Part shown: piece after piece, positions 20,618 to 41,404 of the stretch
How positions within the stretch are numbered: position 1 is the stretch's first letter
Layout of the letters: every line of letters begins with the position of its first letter
From: a phage
Reading direction: 5' to 3' (one strand)
Sequence record: NC_100372.1
DNA length: 64,000 nucleotides
Notes under the pieces: generated by a model
Database searches by the model: none
Seen by the model: only the letters and a program-made list of their open reading frames with translations
Told to the model about the DNA's origin: nothing
Made by a program: the position numbers and the translations under genes

Positions 20618-20896
20618 ATGAGCTGTGAAAAATCTTTTTTCATTATCATCTACGGTAAGGATAACTGCCCACATTGTGTAAGAGCAAAAGAATTTGCAGC
20701 AAGCAAAGGTATACCTTTCGTATACAAGACGCTCGGTGAAGGATACACAAAAGAAGAGCTTATTGAGAAGTGTAGTCCATTTGTTCCCAGAACGTTGCCT
20801 CAGATCTTCTTGGAAAGCAACCTTGATAGTGTCCACATAGGTGGTGCTGACGATTTCATCTCTTTTGTTAAGAATGGTTTTGGAGAGAAAAAGTGA
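20618..20896 (+). CDS. Glutaredoxin-like redoxin (RNR hydrogen donor)
   Basis: Active-site CPHC in YGKDNCPHCVRAKEF; 92 aa. Confidence 0.75.
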   Translation: MSCEKSFFIIIYGKDNCPHCVRAKEFAASKGIPFVYKTLGEGYTKEELIEKCSPFVPRTLPQIFLESNLDSVHIGGADDFISFVKNGFGEKK

Positions 20897-23016
20897 AAGT
20901 TGTAAAACGGGACGGTAGAGAAGAGGTCTATAACGGAGTTAAGGTAATCAAGGCGGCAGAGTCCGCCTTACTTGAGTCTGGGCATACTGAAGAAGAAGCT
21001 TACCGGATCGCTTGTGCGATTAATGAAGTTGTTGCCAACAATCTACCAACCGACCAGTGCACGATCTCTGTAAAAAATATCCATATCCTTGTTGAAGATG
21101 CTCTTATGGATATGGGTTTAAAATGTGCAGCCAGAGAATATATCCAGTATAGACAGACAAGAGATAATAACAGAGAGGCAGGTGGAAAACTGCTTGCAGA
21201 TATTAGTGGCTTCTTGGATCGAACTTGTGATGAATTTACAAAAGAAAACGCAAATAAGCCCACTAATCATGTACATACTCATCGTGACCTGCTTGCAGGT
21301 ATCCTTAGCAAACACCTTGCATCAACACAGATACTGCCAGATCGTGTCTCCGAAGAGCACAACAAGGGATTCATCCATGTGCATGATCTTGACTATCTGA
21401 TCAGTCCGTTAACAAACTGCTGTTTGGTGAATTATCCGGATATGCTGGAAAACGGATTCAACATTGGCAACGCCCATGTCAGTAAGCCGAAGTCAATAGG
21501 GGTTGCAACAACAATCCTCAGCCAAATCTCTAGTGCAGTAGCTAGTGCTCAATATGGTGGTCAGACCATGAGCCATATTGATCATTATCTGGCGCAGTAT
21601 GCTGAAGCAACCTATGAGAAGAATCTTAAATTTTGTCAGGAACATTGGTTGCCGGATGCTGAGACTGTTGCAATGCAAATGACGGATAAAGACGTGTTTG
21701 ATAGTATGCAAACTTTGCTATACCAAATCAATACGTTAACTTCTGTCAACGGGCAAACCCCATTCATCACATTAAGTTTAGGACTGGATACCTCAATCTT
21801 TGGTAGAATGATTACCAAAAACTACCTGAAAGTCCACAAAATGGGTCTTGGTGAAGAACGTATCACACCTGTGTTCCCTAAGGTGCTGTTCTTCCTGGAG
21901 GAGGGTATCAACATGAACCCCGGGGATCCTAACTATGATTTGAAACGATTAGCTCTGGAATGCTCTGCAGAGCGGATTTATCCTGACTTCGTATCTGTAC
22001 CACTAAATAGAAAAGTGACAGGTTCAACAGAAGGTAATGTCACAAGCATGGGTTGCCGGAGTTTTCTTAGCAAATACAATGACTTGGAAACAGGAGAGGA
22101 GAAATACCTTGGCAGATTTAACTTAGGTGTTGTTAGCCTTAACCTACCAATGATTGCGGCAAAAGCTAAAACGGAAGGTGTTGATTTCTTTGCAGTTCTT
22201 GACGAGTACTTGGATCTGGCATACGAGGCTCATCTTGTAAGGGTTAACCGTCTAAAAGGAACAAAGGCAGGGCAGAACCCCATCATGTGGTGTGAAGGAG
22301 CTCTTGCTCGCCTGGATCCTGAAGAGAGTATTGATAAACTCTTCTATGACGGGTATGCTTCCATAAGTATTGGATATATTGGTGTGTATGAAACCTGCCA
22401 GATTTTAGGCAGAGAGGGAGACAAGTCCTTAGCTCTTGGGATCCTTCAGCACATGAAAGACGCTTGTGATCGGTACAAAAAAGAAAGTGGTCTGGCATTC
22501 AGCTTGTACGGCACTCCTTCAGAGAGCTTGTGCTATAAGGCTGCAACATGTCTAGATCGTGAATATCCTGAAGTGTTGAAGCACGAGCACGAATACCTTA
22601 CCAACAGTTTCCACCAGCCCGTGTGGATCAATAGCTCACCTTTTGACAAGTGGAAGTATGAGGAAGGTTTTGCTATGATCTCTTCTGGCGGTAACATTGG
22701 ATACATAGAAACACCTAACCTGAAAAACAACCTGGATGCTTTGGAATCCCTTGTCGATTTCGGGTATAAACACATTATGTATTTTGGTATTAACCAACCT
22801 GTGGATAAATGTCTTAAGTGCGGATTCTCTGGTGAGTTCAGTGCAACAGCTAAAGGCTTTGTATGCCCAGAGTGCGGAAACCATGAAGAGGGAACGATCA
22901 GTGTGATTAGACGTGTATCTGGGTATCTGTCCAGTCCAAACTCCCGACCTTACAACAAAGGTAAGCAAGCGGAAGTTATAGAACGGGTTAAGCACTACGG
23001 CAGCTGTGGTTGCTGA
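20893..23016 (+). CDS. nrdD: Anaerobic ribonucleoside-triphosphate reductase (class III)
   Basis: 707 aa; N-terminal ATP-cone; C-terminal zinc site CLKCGF...CPECG; glycyl-radical motif RRVSGYL. Confidence 0.9.
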   Translation: MKVVKRDGREEVYNGVKVIKAAESALLESGHTEEEAYRIACAINEVVANNLPTDQCTISVKNIHILVEDALMDMGLKCAAREYIQYRQTRDNNREAGGKLLADISGFLDRTCDEFTKENANKPTNHVHTHRDLLAGILSKHLASTQILPDRVSEEHNKGFIHVHDLDYLISPLTNCCLVNYPDMLENGFNIGNAHVSKPKSIGVATTILSQISSAVASAQYGGQTMSHIDHYLAQYAEATYEKNLKFCQEHWLPDAETVAMQMTDKDVFDSMQTLLYQINTLTSVNGQTPFITLSLGLDTSIFGRMITKNYLKVHKMGLGEERITPVFPKVLFFLEEGINMNPGDPNYDLKRLALECSAERIYPDFVSVPLNRKVTGSTEGNVTSMGCRSFLSKYNDLETGEEKYLGRFNLGVVSLNLPMIAAKAKTEGVDFFAVLDEYLDLAYEAHLVRVNRLKGTKAGQNPIMWCEGALARLDPEESIDKLFYDGYASISIGYIGVYETCQILGREGDKSLALGILQHMKDACDRYKKESGLAFSLYGTPSESLCYKAATCLDREYPEVLKHEHEYLTNSFHQPVWINSSPFDKWKYEEGFAMISSGGNIGYIETPNLKNNLDALESLVDFGYKHIMYFGINQPVDKCLKCGFSGEFSATAKGFVCPECGNHEEGTISVIRRVSGYLSSPNSRPYNKGKQAEVIERVKHYGSCGC

Positions 23017-24227: not shown

Positions 24228-25016
24228 ATGGGTCGAGCTAAAGAAACAAAACGCATGCGTGATGAAGCCAGAGAGGCTCGCAAATCTGATCGCCTGCGTA
24301 AGGCTGCTGAGAAATTTGCTGACGAACGAGAGCACACAGCTCCAGCTCTCCGACCAATGAACAAAAAGCAGCAAAAGTATCTTGATTATCTAGGATCGCG
24401 TAAGATTATTATTGTAAACGGTGTGTTTGGATCCGGTAAGACATTCATGGCATCCGCATATGCAGGTGATCTTTTGCGTAAGAACGAGATTGATAAGATC
24501 ATTGTTGCACGCCCTTACGTTCAGACAGGAAAGACTTCAGGGTTTAAACCTGGAAACGCAATGCAGAAACTGTGGCCCTATCTCCGAAGCATGATGGACA
24601 CGATTTGTCGTCGTGTTGGCAAAGGTGCTTTTGCCGCAATGCTGGGAGATGGTCAGAACAGTCGTATCGAGATCTGTGAAGTTGAAAGCATTCGTGGTCG
24701 TAGTTTCGATGAGCGATGCTTTGTCCTAATTGACGAGGCACAGCAAACTAACCCTGAAGAGATGTTGTCAATTATCACAAGGATCTCTGATCAGGCCACA
24801 CTTGTAATCATGGGTGATAATAGCCAACGTGACATCCCTGGTAAGTCTGGGCTTGCATGGGTAACGGATTTCTTTACTCGTCATCCAGATCCTGAGGTTG
24901 GGATGATTAGCTTTGATAGCCCAGATGATGTTGTTCGTTCTGGATTGGGCCGTCAGATTGCACTCAATCTTATTAAGGATCGTGCAAATCATATTTGGAC
25001 ACCTGTTTCCGAGTAA
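24228..25016 (+). CDS. phoH: PhoH-like ATPase
   Basis: Walker A NGVFGSGKTF; 262 aa. Confidence 0.8.
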   Translation: MGRAKETKRMRDEAREARKSDRLRKAAEKFADEREHTAPALRPMNKKQQKYLDYLGSRKIIIVNGVFGSGKTFMASAYAGDLLRKNEIDKIIVARPYVQTGKTSGFKPGNAMQKLWPYLRSMMDTICRRVGKGAFAAMLGDGQNSRIEICEVESIRGRSFDERCFVLIDEAQQTNPEEMLSIITRISDQATLVIMGDNSQRDIPGKSGLAWVTDFFTRHPDPEVGMISFDSPDDVVRSGLGRQIALNLIKDRANHIWTPVSE

Positions 25017-25021
25017 TACAA

Positions 25022-25042
25022 AAGGGTGGTTATTCCACCCTT
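25022..25042 (+). terminator. Hairpin after phoH
   Basis: aagggtgg-ttatt-ccaccctt; weak U tract. Confidence 0.4.
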
Positions 25043-25060
25043 AAATATCTAAAACAATTA

Positions 25061-25089
25061 TTGACAAACAGATAAGTTTTAGGTATTAT
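25061..25089 (+). promoter_or_regulatory. Sigma70-like promoter
   Basis: TTGACA 25061-25066, 17-nt spacer, TATTAT 25084-25089. Confidence 0.6.
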
Positions 25090-25114
25090 CGAACAAAACA
25101 AGGAGAATGACAGT

Positions 25115-25426
25115 ATGGCTACAATACAAGAGAGACTGAATAAGATATACTGCCTATTTGTCTATAACGGTGAGACAATTTTGGCAAACAAAGGATACAA
25201 GAATGTGTGGATTAAGGACAGCGGTGGTAACATAATCAACTTGGCGCTACTACGTGAGCGAAGACACCGATTCTTCACTGAGTCCCGTGTTATTGAAAGC
25301 AACACATTTTACAGAACAGGGGATAAAGTAATTGTTGACAATGACACGTGGTATGTGGTAGACTGGCAATCGTTGACCTGTGATGCTTCTGACAATTGTA
25401 AGTATTCCATGGTAATTGCTAAATAA
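25115..25426 (+). CDS. Hypothetical protein
   Basis: 103-aa ORF with an AAGGAG RBS. Confidence 0.4.
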   Translation: MATIQERLNKIYCLFVYNGETILANKGYKNVWIKDSGGNIINLALLRERRHRFFTESRVIESNTFYRTGDKVIVDNDTWYVVDWQSLTCDASDNCKYSMVIAK

Positions 25427-25487
25427 AGGCAAATGAGAATCAGGTTTAAATAGATCGCTTTTAACTTTCCAACATTAAGGACCTCAC

Positions 25488-26537
25488 ATGAATTTAACAC
25501 CTCGCAGCACCATGGTACACGGCATGAAAGAAAAACAGAACGGCTTCGAACCGATGAGTAATAAAATGTTTGGTATGCCTGGTGGTATTATGGAAACATA
25601 CAGCTACCCAACGCCAGTTGTTGACCACGTGCTTTATATTGACGATCTTGATGATTTGCAGGATCATATGTCCCGTTTGCAAACAATTCGTATGGCACGG
25701 CCGGAAGAAAGTATCCGTGTAATTGTTAACAGCCCTGGTGGTTGCGTCCACATTGCTATGGCGTATTTGCAGGCATTCCGCGAGTCTCAGGCAAGCGTTG
25801 TTGTACACGCTGAAGGGATGTGCTGCTCAGCAGGAACAATCTTATGGCTGGGTTGCAAAGAACGAACTGTGGCTCCGGACACAGAGTTTATGTTCCACTA
25901 CTATCAAGGTGGCACCTATGGCAACGGTGTGAACATGAATACTCAGGTCAACTACTGGAAGAAACGTTTTGAACGCCTGATCGAAAAATACTACGGTGGG
26001 GTTCTGACAGAAGATGAGATCGCATCCATCACGGCTGGTGGAGAAGTGTGGTTGGATGGAGAAGAGCTGGCAGCTCGAACTGGTGCTATCATTCTGGACG
26101 ATGAAAACATTCAGCGCATTCAGAATGGGCAGAAACCGAAAAAGCTTTTGGCAAAAAGTGATGAAGAAGGTGTGCTAGGCGAAGCAGGCCTGCCAGAGAT
26201 TCACCAATGCACATCTCTGGACGAGCTGGTCCATGCTGTTGAGTCTGCAAAAGTAAATGGTATGAAAGGTGATGTTCACACTGTGTTCCTGAATCTGCAG
26301 ATGGAGAGTGGTGAGACCGTTAAGATTGCACTGGGTGAGATTACCTCGGAAGATCTGCAGCGATTCTCTGTGGTAGAGCTTCAGGACATTTTGTCCCAAT
26401 TGAAAACCACCCTGAACGGAGGTGAAGAAGTTCAGGTTAAAGATAAGACCCGCAAGCGTCTGGTGGACAATATTATTAAAACAGCAAAAGAGCTCAATGA
26501 AAAAATCCTGGGCGCAGGAATTGTCGAAGAAGCTTAA
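25488..26537 (+). CDS. ClpP-family serine protease-like protein with long C-terminal extension
   Basis: ClpP-like core with the Ser in EGMCCSAGTILWLG; 349 aa versus roughly 200 for ClpP; start may be internal. Confidence 0.6.
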   Translation: MNLTPRSTMVHGMKEKQNGFEPMSNKMFGMPGGIMETYSYPTPVVDHVLYIDDLDDLQDHMSRLQTIRMARPEESIRVIVNSPGGCVHIAMAYLQAFRESQASVVVHAEGMCCSAGTILWLGCKERTVAPDTEFMFHYYQGGTYGNGVNMNTQVNYWKKRFERLIEKYYGGVLTEDEIASITAGGEVWLDGEELAARTGAIILDDENIQRIQNGQKPKKLLAKSDEEGVLGEAGLPEIHQCTSLDELVHAVESAKVNGMKGDVHTVFLNLQMESGETVKIALGEITSEDLQRFSVVELQDILSQLKTTLNGGEEVQVKDKTRKRLVDNIIKTAKELNEKILGAGIVEEA

Positions 26538-26548
26538 ACATTAATCTT

Positions 26549-26574
26549 AAAGCCCTCTTCGGAGGGCTTTTATG
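26549..26574 (+). terminator. Intrinsic terminator
   Basis: aaagccctc-ttcg-gagggcttt followed by tat. Confidence 0.7.
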
Positions 26575-29546: not shown

Positions 29547-30008
29547 GTGACGATGTTTGTTAAATATGTAAAAACGTGCCTCAACAACCTTGGTAGAGAG
29601 CATTGGTACACACTGCTTGAAAAAGGAGAAATTTTAACAAAATCTGGAAAGATAACTTTGATACCTTTGGACGATAAAGACCCGTCACTACTTGTCATAG
29701 ATGATTACGTTACAGGTGTGTCGTACGAGGTATCTGTGGAGAGGTTAATACGCAGATCTGGAGGTCCTTATGACCGAAGAGAGTATGTTTTCGATTCCGT
29801 TACAGAGAAGGAAGATCCGTCCCTAATGTTTAGAATGGTAATCAGGGATATGAAATCATCTATAAATAGGATCGTAAAGGACATTAAGGAGCCTTTTAGG
29901 GTAAAAGTTAATAAGTTTTTTGATTCTAAGATCAACATACTCACCGTTGTGCTAGGCGTAATTCAACTTCTGTTAATTTTGCACTATTTTGAACTGTTGT
30001 TTAAGTAA
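29547..30008 (+). CDS. Hypothetical protein with C-terminal TM helix
   Basis: 153-aa ORF; C-terminal ILTVVLGVIQLLLILHYF. Confidence 0.4.
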   Translation: MTMFVKYVKTCLNNLGREHWYTLLEKGEILTKSGKITLIPLDDKDPSLLVIDDYVTGVSYEVSVERLIRRSGGPYDRREYVFDSVTEKEDPSLMFRMVIRDMKSSINRIVKDIKEPFRVKVNKFFDSKINILTVVLGVIQLLLILHYFELLFK

Positions 30009-38674: not shown

Positions 38675-38890
38675 ATGAAAATAGAAATATTTGGTGGGGC
38701 TGACAACACTCGTGGCCTGATTTACCTTGAATTCGATGAATCTTACCTGCCAGAGGTGTTAAATATAGATGCTGTTGCGGAAGCCCTTGATGTAGACCCT
38801 AAAGATCTCTACTCCCGTGCTGAGATTGATGGTTGGGAAGAGACTCTGAACATTGATTTCAGTGAAGTAGTAGATGAACCTTTGGACTGA
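38675..38890 (+). CDS. Hypothetical small acidic protein (MKIEIFGG... N-terminus)
   Basis: Start at MKIEIFGGADNTRGL with a GAGGAG RBS; last gene of the plus-strand block. Confidence 0.45.
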   Translation: MKIEIFGGADNTRGLIYLEFDESYLPEVLNIDAVAEALDVDPKDLYSRAEIDGWEETLNIDFSEVVDEPLD

Positions 38891-40355
38891 CACACAAGTC
38901 TGCTTTGCAGGTTTAGCTGCTCAGCTAAGGTTCTGGAGTCACCTATAACATCTTCCAACTAAATTTCCTACCAACACAGTTACTTACCCACCACACATGA
39001 CTGTTTGCTTGTTTAGTGAGCAGTCATCCCTTGACATTCTTGCCTATCTTGATAAAATTAAGTTCTTCTCTTTTCTTTTACCGAGTAATTCGGGTTTTCT
39101 GTTCTCTTCGGTTTGAAGGGGTATGGAGATACACCTGAGTGAACAGGGTGAACAACCGAACCTTTAGCTATGGCATTAGCATGGCGAAGCGGACGGGTGA
39201 CGAAAGAGGGGCCGGAGGACACCAGTCACTGCCATATAGTATATGGGTGATAACCTGAAGAGTCTGAATAAGTGTTTAAGTACCAGTCAGAGGAAAAGGT
39301 GAATGGTAGCCGAAGGGGGAGGGGGGTTTCTTATATCTTTAATTTGTATACTTTATATACACTTGTAAACCAATTCAATTAGGATCTGTTTACCACACAA
39401 AGTGGATGGAGACAAATATCACCTATTAAACTTGAATTATTTATAGAAAATACCACAACACCGCTTAAGTCTTTGATTTTACACACAAATCTTACAAATA
39501 TCCTACCTCCATATTTAACATACTTGTAACATATTCCATATCCTACCTGCCTGATCAATTTACTCCCACCACATTCCCACATTTTCCCTGTCTGTACTAC
39601 CCCACCCCCGCCGGGAGTCCCGTCATATCTGGCTTTCCAGCAAATATCACACCCACAAATATCATCACCTGAAGAGGGTTTCATCCCATAATACCTGCCT
39701 TACCTGAAGAGCGCTTCATACACCACCTAAATTTTTTAATTGACCCCTCCCCGCCGCCGGAGAGGTTGGCTTTTCCCACACAGGCCTGAAGAGTCAGCCA
39801 GAAATATCTGAACAGGTCCAGTTATGCCCCGATTTTGTGCTTGTCCTACAGGAGTGCTGCCCTGTCAGGAGCCGGTAGCGACTGGAGTGCTGCCAGGCGG
39901 ACGGAATGGGAATACTTCTCATTTTTATAATAATTCTCAAATATCGAGGCAGTGAGGCAAATTAATAGGCCAGGCCGTTCACACAGTGGCACAACATTTG
40001 CAATCTATCTTGTGGGAGTGAATGAGAATACCTATCATTGTGAGAATGGTTATCATTACGGGCAATTTAACATAATACCTATTATGCGCACCACTGGCGA
40101 TACATACAGGGATTGATAACATGGGTTACTGTTTACGCACATAACAATTATATTTATTACTATTTGTGTGGGATATAGTTAGCAACCAATAGATTAGATA
40201 TTGACCTGCAGACTTCTGACCGTCCAGACGTCTAAACGCCCACACAACAAGGATTATACATACATTCCTGAATGTAAACAGGGCCGCAAAAAATGCTACC
40301 ATACCAGTTTGTAAATTTTTCATGCAGCACTTGACAAAGAGGAGAAAAACTTGTC

Positions 40356-40417
40356 TGACACAATGTGACAAAATTGCCACTTTTGACACTTTTACCTTTG
40401 ACACAATATGACACAAT
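40356..40417. repeat. Cluster of five TGACA(C/A)(A/T)(A/T)T repeats
   Basis: tgacacaat 40356, tgacaaaat 40366, tgacacttt 40384, tgacacaat 40399 and 40409; inside the ORF-free region. Confidence 0.6.
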
Positions 40418-40443
40418 AACGGCTGTTACTATTCCATATCTCA

Positions 40444-40503
40444 CTGTTTACGTATAGACTGTTTACGCCTGAATAGTTTACGCCCAAACTGTTTACACAG
40501 AGA
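40444..40503. repeat. Four tandem 15-bp repeats with core TGTTTACRC
   Basis: ctgtttacg 40444, ctgtttacg 40459, tagtttacg 40474, ctgtttaca 40489 (exact 15-bp period); extra copies at 40129, 40900 and 40943. Confidence 0.8.
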
Positions 40504-40510
40504 TGATAAG

Positions 40511-40750
40511 CCATGACATTCGTTTGCATGAAAACAATTAACAAGTTAATAATATATGACATAATATAAAAGCAGGGCAACTATTAGAAGATCTATAGTT
40601 GCCTTGCTTGTTATGTCATGATTAACTAAATACAAGGCAACTATGATCTGAATAATAGATTGCAGAAAAACTATCACGGGGGTGATTGTTACTGCTTTTA
40701 TATTATGTCGCGACTCCGTCGCGCCATGCCATTCGTTTGCATAGTTGCCT
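40511..40750. repeat. Nested dyad-symmetric element
   Basis: Perfect 18-bp inverted repeat gacataatataaaagcag (40558-40575) / ctgcttttatattatgtc (40692-40709); inner palindrome ggcaactat-N10-atagttgcc (40576-40603); GGCAACTAT again at 40636 and inverted at 40741; flanking direct repeat cattcgtttgcat (40517 and 40731); palindrome cgcgac-tcc-gtcgcg (40709-40723). Confidence 0.8.
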
Positions 40751-41357
40751 TATTGTTACAGGTAAAACAATTACATTATTAATTATTTCTTATCTTTCTC
40801 TTAGTCATCTAATGATTCCAGTCAGTATAGTAATGTACAGTAAACATTAGACGACTAAAGATTTCTCTGTGTATAATAACTTATCGTGACAATTTCGAAC
40901 TGTTTACGAAAAATGTTGACACCTGAGCTGATTTATGTTATGCAGTTTACACGAATAATTATTTTATGCAGGTATTGACTATTCCGTTATTCTGTGGTTG
41001 GAATAAATACTTTGCAGACTATAGAATGGCGTGCGTACGTGAATTCTGAGATCTGGCGGCTATAGTTATACTCGATTTTTCGCGTAGAACACGCTTTCGA
41101 TGCTGTGTAAGTGTATGACTTATAAAGATTTTTAGTTGTTGACAAGATATTGGAGATGTGCATCAGGTTAAAATTTGTGCAATAGCGGCATTACGTGCAC
41201 TTTTGGGAGAGAAAACGGGTAAAAATGGCCCTGCTACCACACAATGAAAGATTATGCAATGGTTATTTTCCATGTATATTTGTACAGTATGTGGGATTGA
41301 TGGCTAGTCAATTATTCCACTTGCCAGGTAGGGCCGTTTATGGTAGGAGAAGAGCAG

Positions 41358-41386
41358 ACAAAAAGAAAGGGGCCTTTAAGCCCCTT
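41358..41386 (-). terminator. Intrinsic terminator for the minus-strand block
   Basis: Plus-strand aaggggc-ctttaa-gcccctt; on the minus strand it is followed by tctttttgtc; sits just past the stop of 41405-41824. Confidence 0.65.
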
Positions 41387-41404
41387 GATAATTCAGTTAA
41401 GAAA

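Follow-up and report, generated by a model that had tools for sequence, protein, structure and literature searches.

Within a 64,000-nucleotide (nt) stretch of phage DNA from sequence record NC_100372.1 (here, the window), the open reading frame (ORF) at positions 25488 to 26537 (+ strand) encodes 349 amino acids (aa) plus a stop codon and is a ClpP-like protease gene, the homologue of gp122 of phage rV5. The annotated fold and family of this protein are already known; its deviations lie in the docking surface, the third residue of the catalytic triad, and a private C-terminal domain. We tentatively favor the view, with a little less than even confidence, that it is a non-morphogenetic, cytoplasmic serine peptidase of the ClpP fold that would act independently of ClpX and ClpA and would draw its specificity from the tethered C-terminal domain.

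The source DNA belongs to Vequintavirus, the rV5/FV3-like myophages, and is 99.5% identical to Escherichia phage vB_EcoM_10C2_SA_NWU (megablast). The gene itself recurs in 118 phage records, almost all of them Vequintavirus (megablast; top match, 99.5%), and the protein is 99.4% identical to its counterpart in phage 10C2. Published annotation lists rV5 gp122, which has the same length of 349 aa, as a "ClpP (ATP-dependent) protease subunit" with an isoelectric point (pI) of 5.0 (PMC3606486 Table S3), and the BASEL phage annotation calls the counterpart gene a "ClpP-like protease." Pfam CLP_protease (PF00574) matches residues 59 to 169 (E = 1.5e-12; 48.2 bits against a cut-off of 20.2). PHROG 5410 matches over the full length, C-terminal domain included (E = 2e-154; residues 24 to 345 against profile positions 4 to 322 of 323), and PHROG 1827 matches at E = 2.3e-38. 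The initial annotation, made from the letters of the DNA, had named a ClpP-like protease, and these Pfam and PHROG matches and the 118 records bear it out. The protein is a member of the already catalogued PHROG 5410 family, within a broader and uncharacterised clade of ClpP-like, non-head proteins of phages; tblastn finds a ClpP-like gene of this sort in 946 phage records. A literature search on the function, timing, and essentiality of the gp122 family (rV5, Vequintavirus, and ICP1; transcriptomes, CRISPRi-ART, and phage transposon sequencing) found no study covering the gene, and the defence-system library PADLOC gave no meaningful match for the protein.

We aligned 20 homologues of 40 to 69% identity, drawn from Vequintavirus, Seunavirus, Erwinia and Cronobacter phages, and metagenomes, and modeled the whole protein as a monomer with AlphaFold2 (mean predicted local distance difference test score, or pLDDT, of 75.6). 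The layout is as follows.

25488 to 25619, + strand: N-terminal region, residues 1 to 44, predicted to be disordered; F28, G29, Y40, and P41 are invariant in the alignment.
25620 to 26099, + strand: ClpP-fold core with handle helix, residues 45 to 204 (AlphaFold2, Foldseek, and hhalign).
25827 to 25829, + strand: codon of Ser114, the putative nucleophile, in GMCCSAG; invariant in 20/20 homologues and aligned to ClpP Ser97.
25896 to 25898, + strand: codon of His137, the putative general base, in FMFH; invariant in 20/20 homologues and aligned to ClpP His122.
26043 to 26045, + strand: codon of Glu186, which stands where ClpP has its triad Asp; the best phmmer match pairs it with the catalytic Asp of PDB 9ndj_P, a solved ClpP chain.
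26100 to 26138, + strand: post-core helix, residues 205 to 217; N207, I208, and G214 are invariant, and P217 is present in at least 90%.
26139 to 26270, + strand: variable linker, residues 218 to 261; 17 to 44 aa across the family, with a mean identity of 22% and many indels.
26271 to 26534, + strand: family-specific C-terminal domain of about 85 aa, residues 262 to 349; nearly gap-free, with F293, E297, and R322 invariant.

The core is modeled with a pLDDT of about 90 or above for the most part (66 to 88 in the handle strand, residues 131 to 160). In the N-terminal region the first 23 or so residues are genus-specific, and the pLDDT lies below 50 at residues 6 to 42. Foldseek places the core with ClpP structures (E of about 4e-10 to 3e-9; target template modeling score, or TM-score, of 0.55 to 0.73; 16 to 22% identity), and hhalign aligns it to E. 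coli ClpP at E = 9.5e-9. The fold and the Ser and His positions are thus those expected of a canonical ClpP, and the serine that had been picked out in GMCCSAG is indeed the residue aligned to the ClpP nucleophile. The catalytic Asp is not found; Glu186 stands there instead, in a loop that the global alignment to E. coli ClpP places only to within 3 residues. This third position is Glu in 5 of the 20 family members and Gln in the other 15, Gln being the residue of the sister genera; ICP1 gp211 and KVP40 ClpP, which are more distant, have Asp. The predicted active site is a Ser-His pair with a non-canonical third residue.

The second deviation concerns the surface on which ClpP meets its unfoldases. 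Residues of the E. coli ClpP site that binds acyldepsipeptides and IGF loops have been listed (bioRxiv 10.1101/2023.03.01.530711), and we transferred them to the window protein through the hhalign alignment to E. coli ClpP, at 19 to 26% identity and at the level of sequence only.

ClpP Y60: R77, invariant in the family.
ClpP F82: E99, invariant in the family.
ClpP I90: H107, invariant in the family.
ClpP M92: E109, invariant in the family.
ClpP L114: A129.
ClpP L48, F49, E51, and A52: no equivalent, falling inside a 5-residue deletion.
ClpP V28, F30, Y62, and L189: V48, Y50, I79, and L203, hydrophobic equivalents and the only ones kept.

By this mapping the docking pocket of a canonical ClpP is not retained, its place being taken by invariant charged residues or a deletion. 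F112, which we take to be a further pocket residue of ClpP, maps to T127. The N-terminal region cannot be aligned to the N-terminal gating loop of ClpP. The NCBIfam ClpP models score 14 to 39 bits against cut-offs of 228 to 746; TIGR00493 (31.5 versus 308.6 bits) and NF001368 (35.9 versus 249 bits) both fall below theirs. The ClpX/ClpA docking surface thus appears to be lost, replaced by an invariant polar cluster or deleted, and because of this replacement the "ATP-dependent" label is doubtful and finds no support in the sequence.

The third deviation is the C-terminal extension. The end of E. coli ClpP aligns to residue 207, so that the extension comprises about 142 to 145 aa, close to the roughly 150 residues first proposed. 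It had also been described as acidic, which holds weakly (residues 205 to 349 contain 26 D+E versus 18 K+R, a net charge of -8 and a pI of 4.95) but is not distinctive, the core being equally acidic (pI 4.86). The extension begins with the post-core helix, confidently modeled at residues 205 to 212 (pLDDT of about 83 to 92), which comes after L203, the residue matched to L189 of the ClpP pocket. The linker is mostly disordered (pLDDT below 50 at residues 222 to 239 and 258 to 262). The C-terminal domain, modeled alone, folds compactly into a β-hairpin and a pair of long helices (pLDDT, 81.8; predicted template modeling score, 0.69). It evolves faster than the core, with a mean identity of 29% versus 62%, and such fast divergence without gaps is the pattern expected of a recognition module.

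Searches with this domain led back to its own family. Its profile found no match among PDB sequences (best E = 0.26), and Foldseek found no fold match in the PDB, scaffold domains included (best E = 0.99). The single Foldseek match in BFVD is a 303-aa viral protein, very likely another member of the gp122 family. Against 1.84 billion representative proteins, the profile recovered 5 family members and 2 repeat proteins. The latter, the long proteins P0044 and P0045, are tandem repeats (leucine-rich in P0044) with 4 to 5 matched stretches each, and we set them aside as spurious, repeat-inflated matches. The pattern F-x-V-x-E-L…R-x-x-L-I had suggested a HeH, Rho-N, or SAP fold; this idea was dropped, with no Pfam match at E up to 1 and no backing from PDB profiles (E of at least 0.26) or Foldseek against the PDB (E of at least 0.99). 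A scaffold-like extension was likewise rejected (BLASTP against the Vequintavirus scaffold, E = 0.37), as was homology to the C-terminal domain of ICP1 gp211 (hhalign E = 0.097, probability 0.6%), which is alike in overall layout only. By these profile and model searches, the C-terminal domain is without a sequence or fold relative outside Vequintavirinae-type phages.

In the mechanism that we propose, Ser114, His137, and Glu186 would form the active site of a ClpP-fold serine peptidase whose gene would be co-transcribed with the gp121 homologue just upstream, from a σ70-type promoter to an intrinsic terminator, within a nucleotide-metabolism and replication cluster. The enzyme would work in the cytoplasm of the infected cell and would not need ClpX or ClpA, the unfoldases of the host, because the pocket for their IGF/IGL loops appears to be replaced by the cluster R77, E99, H107, E109, and T127 or deleted. 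Since L203 corresponds to ClpP L189, the chain would exit the core at the former apical docking surface, where the conserved helix would sit and from which the flexible 17- to 44-residue linker would tether the orphan domain. That domain, in place of the ATPase, would be the specificity element, recruiting a host or phage protein, or gp121, or gating the ring. Here we infer ring assembly, catalytic activity, the recruiting role of the C-terminal domain, and the identity of the targets.

Several points weigh against this proposal. A closed ClpP ring without an unfoldase degrades only peptides, and the handling of folded targets is thus a difficulty. Gln at the acidic triad position in most relatives may mean that activity is low or regulated. 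The pocket mapping is a sequence-level transfer through an alignment of 19 to 26% identity. Prohead proteases often destroy themselves, so that the absence of gp122 from virions, described below, is weak evidence against a role in the head. According to the authors of the rV5 study, σ70-like promoters occur throughout the rV5 genome (PMC3606486), and the promoter type is therefore no proof of early timing. Finally, a homologue of rV5 gp133 (153 aa; 29547 to 30008, + strand; PHROG 7821, "virion structural protein," E = 2.8e-65) is encoded 3 kb downstream on the same strand, and gp133 is among the predominant proteins in virion mass spectrometry (PMC3606486), so the region is not purely non-structural.

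A bolder form of ATPase independence is unlikely but deserves mention. The protein could assemble into a "deregulated" ClpP ring, in effect like acyldepsipeptide-activated ClpP, with its own post-core helix lying in the docking site and the orphan domain catching targets; such a ring would, early or midway in infection, destroy a specific host factor, or unfolded and nascent host proteins, and so contribute to host takeover. The protein might also supply the protease activity sensed by EcCdnG, a protease-sensing operon of the cyclic oligonucleotide-based antiphage signaling system (CBASS) type that defends against the Vequintavirinae Bas48 to Bas59 (PMC12991175). Mutations in the EcCdnG activation loop that abolish defence against T4 leave defence against Bas51 intact, and the loop specificity thus differs from that for T4 gp21 (PMC12991175).

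We next consider the head. The initial annotation had suggested that the protein might target host proteins instead of processing the prohead and had proposed asking whether the structural genes carry a protease of their own. They do. In Vequintavirus DrSchubert the head module runs portal, "prohead protease," scaffold, decoration protein, and major capsid protein, and the 139-aa prohead protease between portal and scaffold is a full-length match to Pfam Peptidase_S78_2 (XkdF; E = 8.7e-18), with His21 and Ser110 as plausible catalytic residues from its sequence. This head module is present in 126 records, with an organism and host breakdown nearly the same as that of the 118 records holding the ClpP-like gene, and a search for it in the 64-kb window found none. 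The ClpP-like gene does not sit beside portal or scaffold; its neighbours are NrdD, NrdG, PhoH, and a methyltransferase. Its extension resembles neither the scaffold nor any solved fold. Mass spectrometry of rV5 virions identified 19 proteins, and gp122 is not one of them (PMC3606486). Homologues elsewhere also lie in replication clusters. ICP1 gp211, a 326-aa protein that has an acidic linker and a C-terminal domain of its own, is encoded with NrdB/PhoH on one side and DNA ligase on the other; KVP40 ClpP (Straboviridae) lies between frd and uvsX, and a Pakpunavirus "protease subunit" near dCMP deaminase and ligase. KVP40, as a T4-type phage, presumably has a T4 gp21-type head protease. The ClpP-like protein is thus very probably not a head-maturation enzyme, as had been suggested.

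Could it nonetheless be a second one? In that case its C-terminal domain would bring it into the procapsid, where it would degrade the scaffold or trim portal or internal proteins, beside or instead of the XkdF-like protein. The best curated matches outside its own family are indeed phage head-maturation models, namely NF045542 (ClpP-related phage head-maturation protease; E = 1.4e-16) and PHROG 1684, 94, and 133; yet the NF045542 score of 60.9 bits stays below the cut-off of 120. The arrangement of protease, linker, and helical C-terminal domain resembles that of capsid-targeted proteases such as λ gpC/Nu3 and HK97 gp4, but the extension is unlike a scaffold, and no gp122 was identified in virions. 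In rV5 virions the major capsid protein still has its N-terminus, as a peptide beginning at residue 5 shows, so any head protease of these phages acts on something other than the capsid-protein delta domain. A virion-protein gene is also nearby; the head module, however, is far away and already contains a full-length XkdF/S78_2 protein, and the KVP40 and ICP1 homologues lie in replication clusters. On balance we regard a second head protease as improbable.

We give similarly little credence to the idea that this ClpP-fold protein has little or no activity and acts through binding, whether it decoys or inhibits a chaperone or protease of the host or serves as a scaffold for gp121 or the methyltransferase. 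Where the triad acid belongs, 15 of 20 relatives have Gln and the window protein has Glu, and Listeria ClpP1, with Asn at this position, is reportedly inactive alone. Both the conserved surface cluster and the orphan C-terminal domain suggest contacts with other proteins. Against this, Gln or Glu can still orient the His, and Ser114, His137, and the NSPGG loop are invariant across genera at 40 to 70% identity, a conservation difficult to account for in a non-catalytic protein. A genuine ATP-dependent ClpP subunit, whose rings would dock host ClpX/ClpA, possibly mixed with host ClpP, and so redirect host AAA+ proteolysis, is the reading behind the database label "ATP-dependent protease," and the ClpP fold, the handle region (HYYQGGTYGNG versus HQPLGGYQGQ in ClpP), and the NSPGG oxyanion motif are all kept, but it is very unlikely given docking-pocket residues that are invariantly charged or deleted, an unrecognisable N-terminal gating loop, an identity of about 19 to 26% to E. 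coli ClpP that makes mixed rings unlikely, scores far below the ClpP equivalog cut-offs, and a bulky extension emerging at the docking face.

The preferred reading, a cytoplasmic peptidase independent of ClpX and ClpA, places the gene in a short transcription unit whose further elements are as follows.

25061 to 25089, + strand: σ70-type promoter-like site, TTGACA-17-TATTAT, with 11/12 consensus positions (promoter scan and sequence reading).
25115 to 25426, + strand: gp121 homologue, 103 aa, function unknown (PHROG 5456, unknown function, E = 1.5e-36).
26552 to 26573, + strand: intrinsic terminator hairpin, GCCCTCTTCGGAGGGCTTTTAT (sequence reading), identical to rV5 t122 (PMC3606486 Table S4).

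The promoter-like site is the counterpart of the predicted rV5 promoter P121 (PMC3606486 Table S4), and the gp122 homologue has its own ribosome-binding site, AAGGA, 6 nt 5' of the ATG. Promoter, gp121 homologue, ClpP-like gene, and terminator form what reads as a compact two-gene unit. The rV5 late-promoter motif TGGTAAAATA has one nearby match, a one-mismatch site inside the gp121 ORF at 25225, which is uninformative. Upstream of the ClpP-like gene lie NrdA/B, glutaredoxin, NrdD, NrdG, and PhoH, and downstream lies a DNA methyltransferase. The gene had been placed among early/metabolic genes. The metabolic content stands, with Nrd, PhoH, and methyltransferase neighbours, whereas the gp133 gene 3 kb downstream shows that the surroundings are not purely non-structural. 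We infer early or middle expression of the ClpP-like gene.

Pfam gave no match for the gp121 homologue. In Seunavirus EspYZU15, PhoH is followed by small ORFs, gp121-like ORFs, the ClpP-like gene, and a methyltransferase, in that order, and weak homologues of gp121 lie directly 5' of the ClpP-like gene (BLASTP, 2e-5 and 8e-5). The gp121-type domain (V-x-V-D-x-x-T-x-Y-x-x-D-W) occurs there in tandem, in ORF135 and in the C-terminal half of ORF136 (L007, 2725 to 3490). No gp121 homologue was found beside the ClpP-like genes of ICP1, KVP40, or Pakpunavirus. The order PhoH, one to three small ORFs, and ClpP-like gene is common to Vequintavirus, Seunavirus, and the unrelated Vibrio phage ICP1 (window, 24228 to 26537; L007, 1265 to 4421; L005, 2214 to 4912; respectively) and was not seen in KVP40 or Pakpunavirus.

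Several further observations concern the window and its relatives. The nrdD gene at 20893 to 23016 (+ strand) is a single ORF in the window and is split by an HNH homing endonuclease in phage FV3 (L002, 2607 to 5525). The large terminase of DrSchubert is annotated as two joined pieces with a putative homing-endonuclease ORF inside the span. Around 38850 to 41400 the window contains a gene-poor stretch of about 2.5 kb in which the coding strand switches from + to - and the GC content dips to 0.379. The same stretch is an unannotated gap in DrSchubert (L001, 33364 to 35869) and probably the "non-coding" box of the rV5 map; Rfam and tRNA scans of the window, this stretch included, found nothing.

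Among the records holding the ClpP-like gene, 18 are labelled "Campylobacter phage" (MG065661, MG065674, MG065653, and others; host C. jejuni, unannotated) and encode the protein at 95 to 96% identity. These same records also hold the head module of Vequintavirus; they resemble rV5-like phages of E. coli, and the host label is doubtful. Klebsiella phage vB_Kpn_K45PH128C2 (OY978796.1, 124559 to 132371) carries a ClpP-like homologue of 44% identity on the + strand, overlapped by minus-strand "tail fiber" and "tail spike" coding sequences flagged as pseudo or partial, an annotation apparently out of register with the sequence.

These results matter in several ways. Away from the head module, hundreds of large lytic phages (the 946 tblastn records) carry a gene for a stand-alone ClpP-like protein. 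If the window protein is indeed independent of ClpX and ClpA and has a private targeting domain, it would be a compact, self-sufficient viral protease directed against cytoplasmic targets, and the routine "ATP-dependent Clp protease" label would be misleading in more than 100 genomes. Vequintavirus phages would offer two candidate proteases, the XkdF-type and the ClpP-like, as the trigger of CBASS, and which of them it is can be tested directly. Because rV5-like phages are candidates against O157 and other pathogenic E. coli, the enzyme is also worth understanding for phage therapy.

How does the window protein compare with known systems? Its presumed mode of action is that of a self-compartmentalised peptidase of the ClpP fold. 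With canonical E. coli ClpP (MEROPS S14) it shares the α/β fold with handle helix (Foldseek 1yg6, 2fzs, and 6wr2; E of about 1e-9, target TM-score of 0.65 to 0.70), the homologous Ser and His positions, the NSPGG oxyanion motif, and the Gly-rich handle strand. It differs in overall sequence (about 19% identity in Foldseek alignments and 26% over 105 hhalign columns), in having Glu, or Gln in relatives, for the triad Asp, and in having R77, E99, H107, E109, and T127 for the IGF-loop pocket, with helix B 5 residues shorter. It also differs in its unrecognisable gating loop, its extra 145-aa C-terminal extension, and its position far below the NCBIfam ClpP cut-offs.

Like NF045542, PHROG 1684, 94, and 133, and the protease-capsid fusions of NF045540, it is a phage ClpP-fold protease. 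The head-maturation proteases of the NF045542 type work without an ATPase, often with C-terminal scaffold or capsid domains. Unlike them, the window protein falls below the family cut-off and is encoded outside the head module in a genome type with a separate XkdF/S78 protease, and its extension is unlike scaffold and capsid proteins. In λ gpC/Nu3 and the SppA-type S49 peptidases, too, a ClpP-fold protease is followed by a C-terminal non-catalytic domain, an arrangement that the window protein shares. The S49 enzymes, however, use a Ser-Lys dyad, and λ gpC is encoded in the head module. The window protein has instead a conserved Ser-His pair, its match to the SppA model is marginal (E = 0.008, 14 bits), and its C-terminal domain is a compact β-hairpin plus two helices rather than an extended coiled coil.

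The remaining comparison is with the stand-alone proteins of other large lytic phages, grouped with PHROG 1827, ICP1 gp211 and KVP40 ClpP in particular; a search for functional literature on the ICP1, KVP40, and Pakpunavirus ClpP-like proteins found none. Homology in the core is clear (hhalign E = 4e-24 for ICP1 and 1e-20 for KVP40), and Glu at the position of ClpP M92 is common to the window protein and the ICP1/KVP40/Pakpunavirus group. All of these genes have neighbours that serve replication and nucleotide metabolism (in ICP1, PhoH is close by), and the ICP1 and KVP40 proteins also have charged C-terminal extensions. Unlike the window protein, ICP1 and KVP40 keep the triad Asp, and the ICP1 extension is not detectably homologous (hhalign E = 0.097, as above), the window-type C-terminal domain being confined to Vequintavirinae-type phages.

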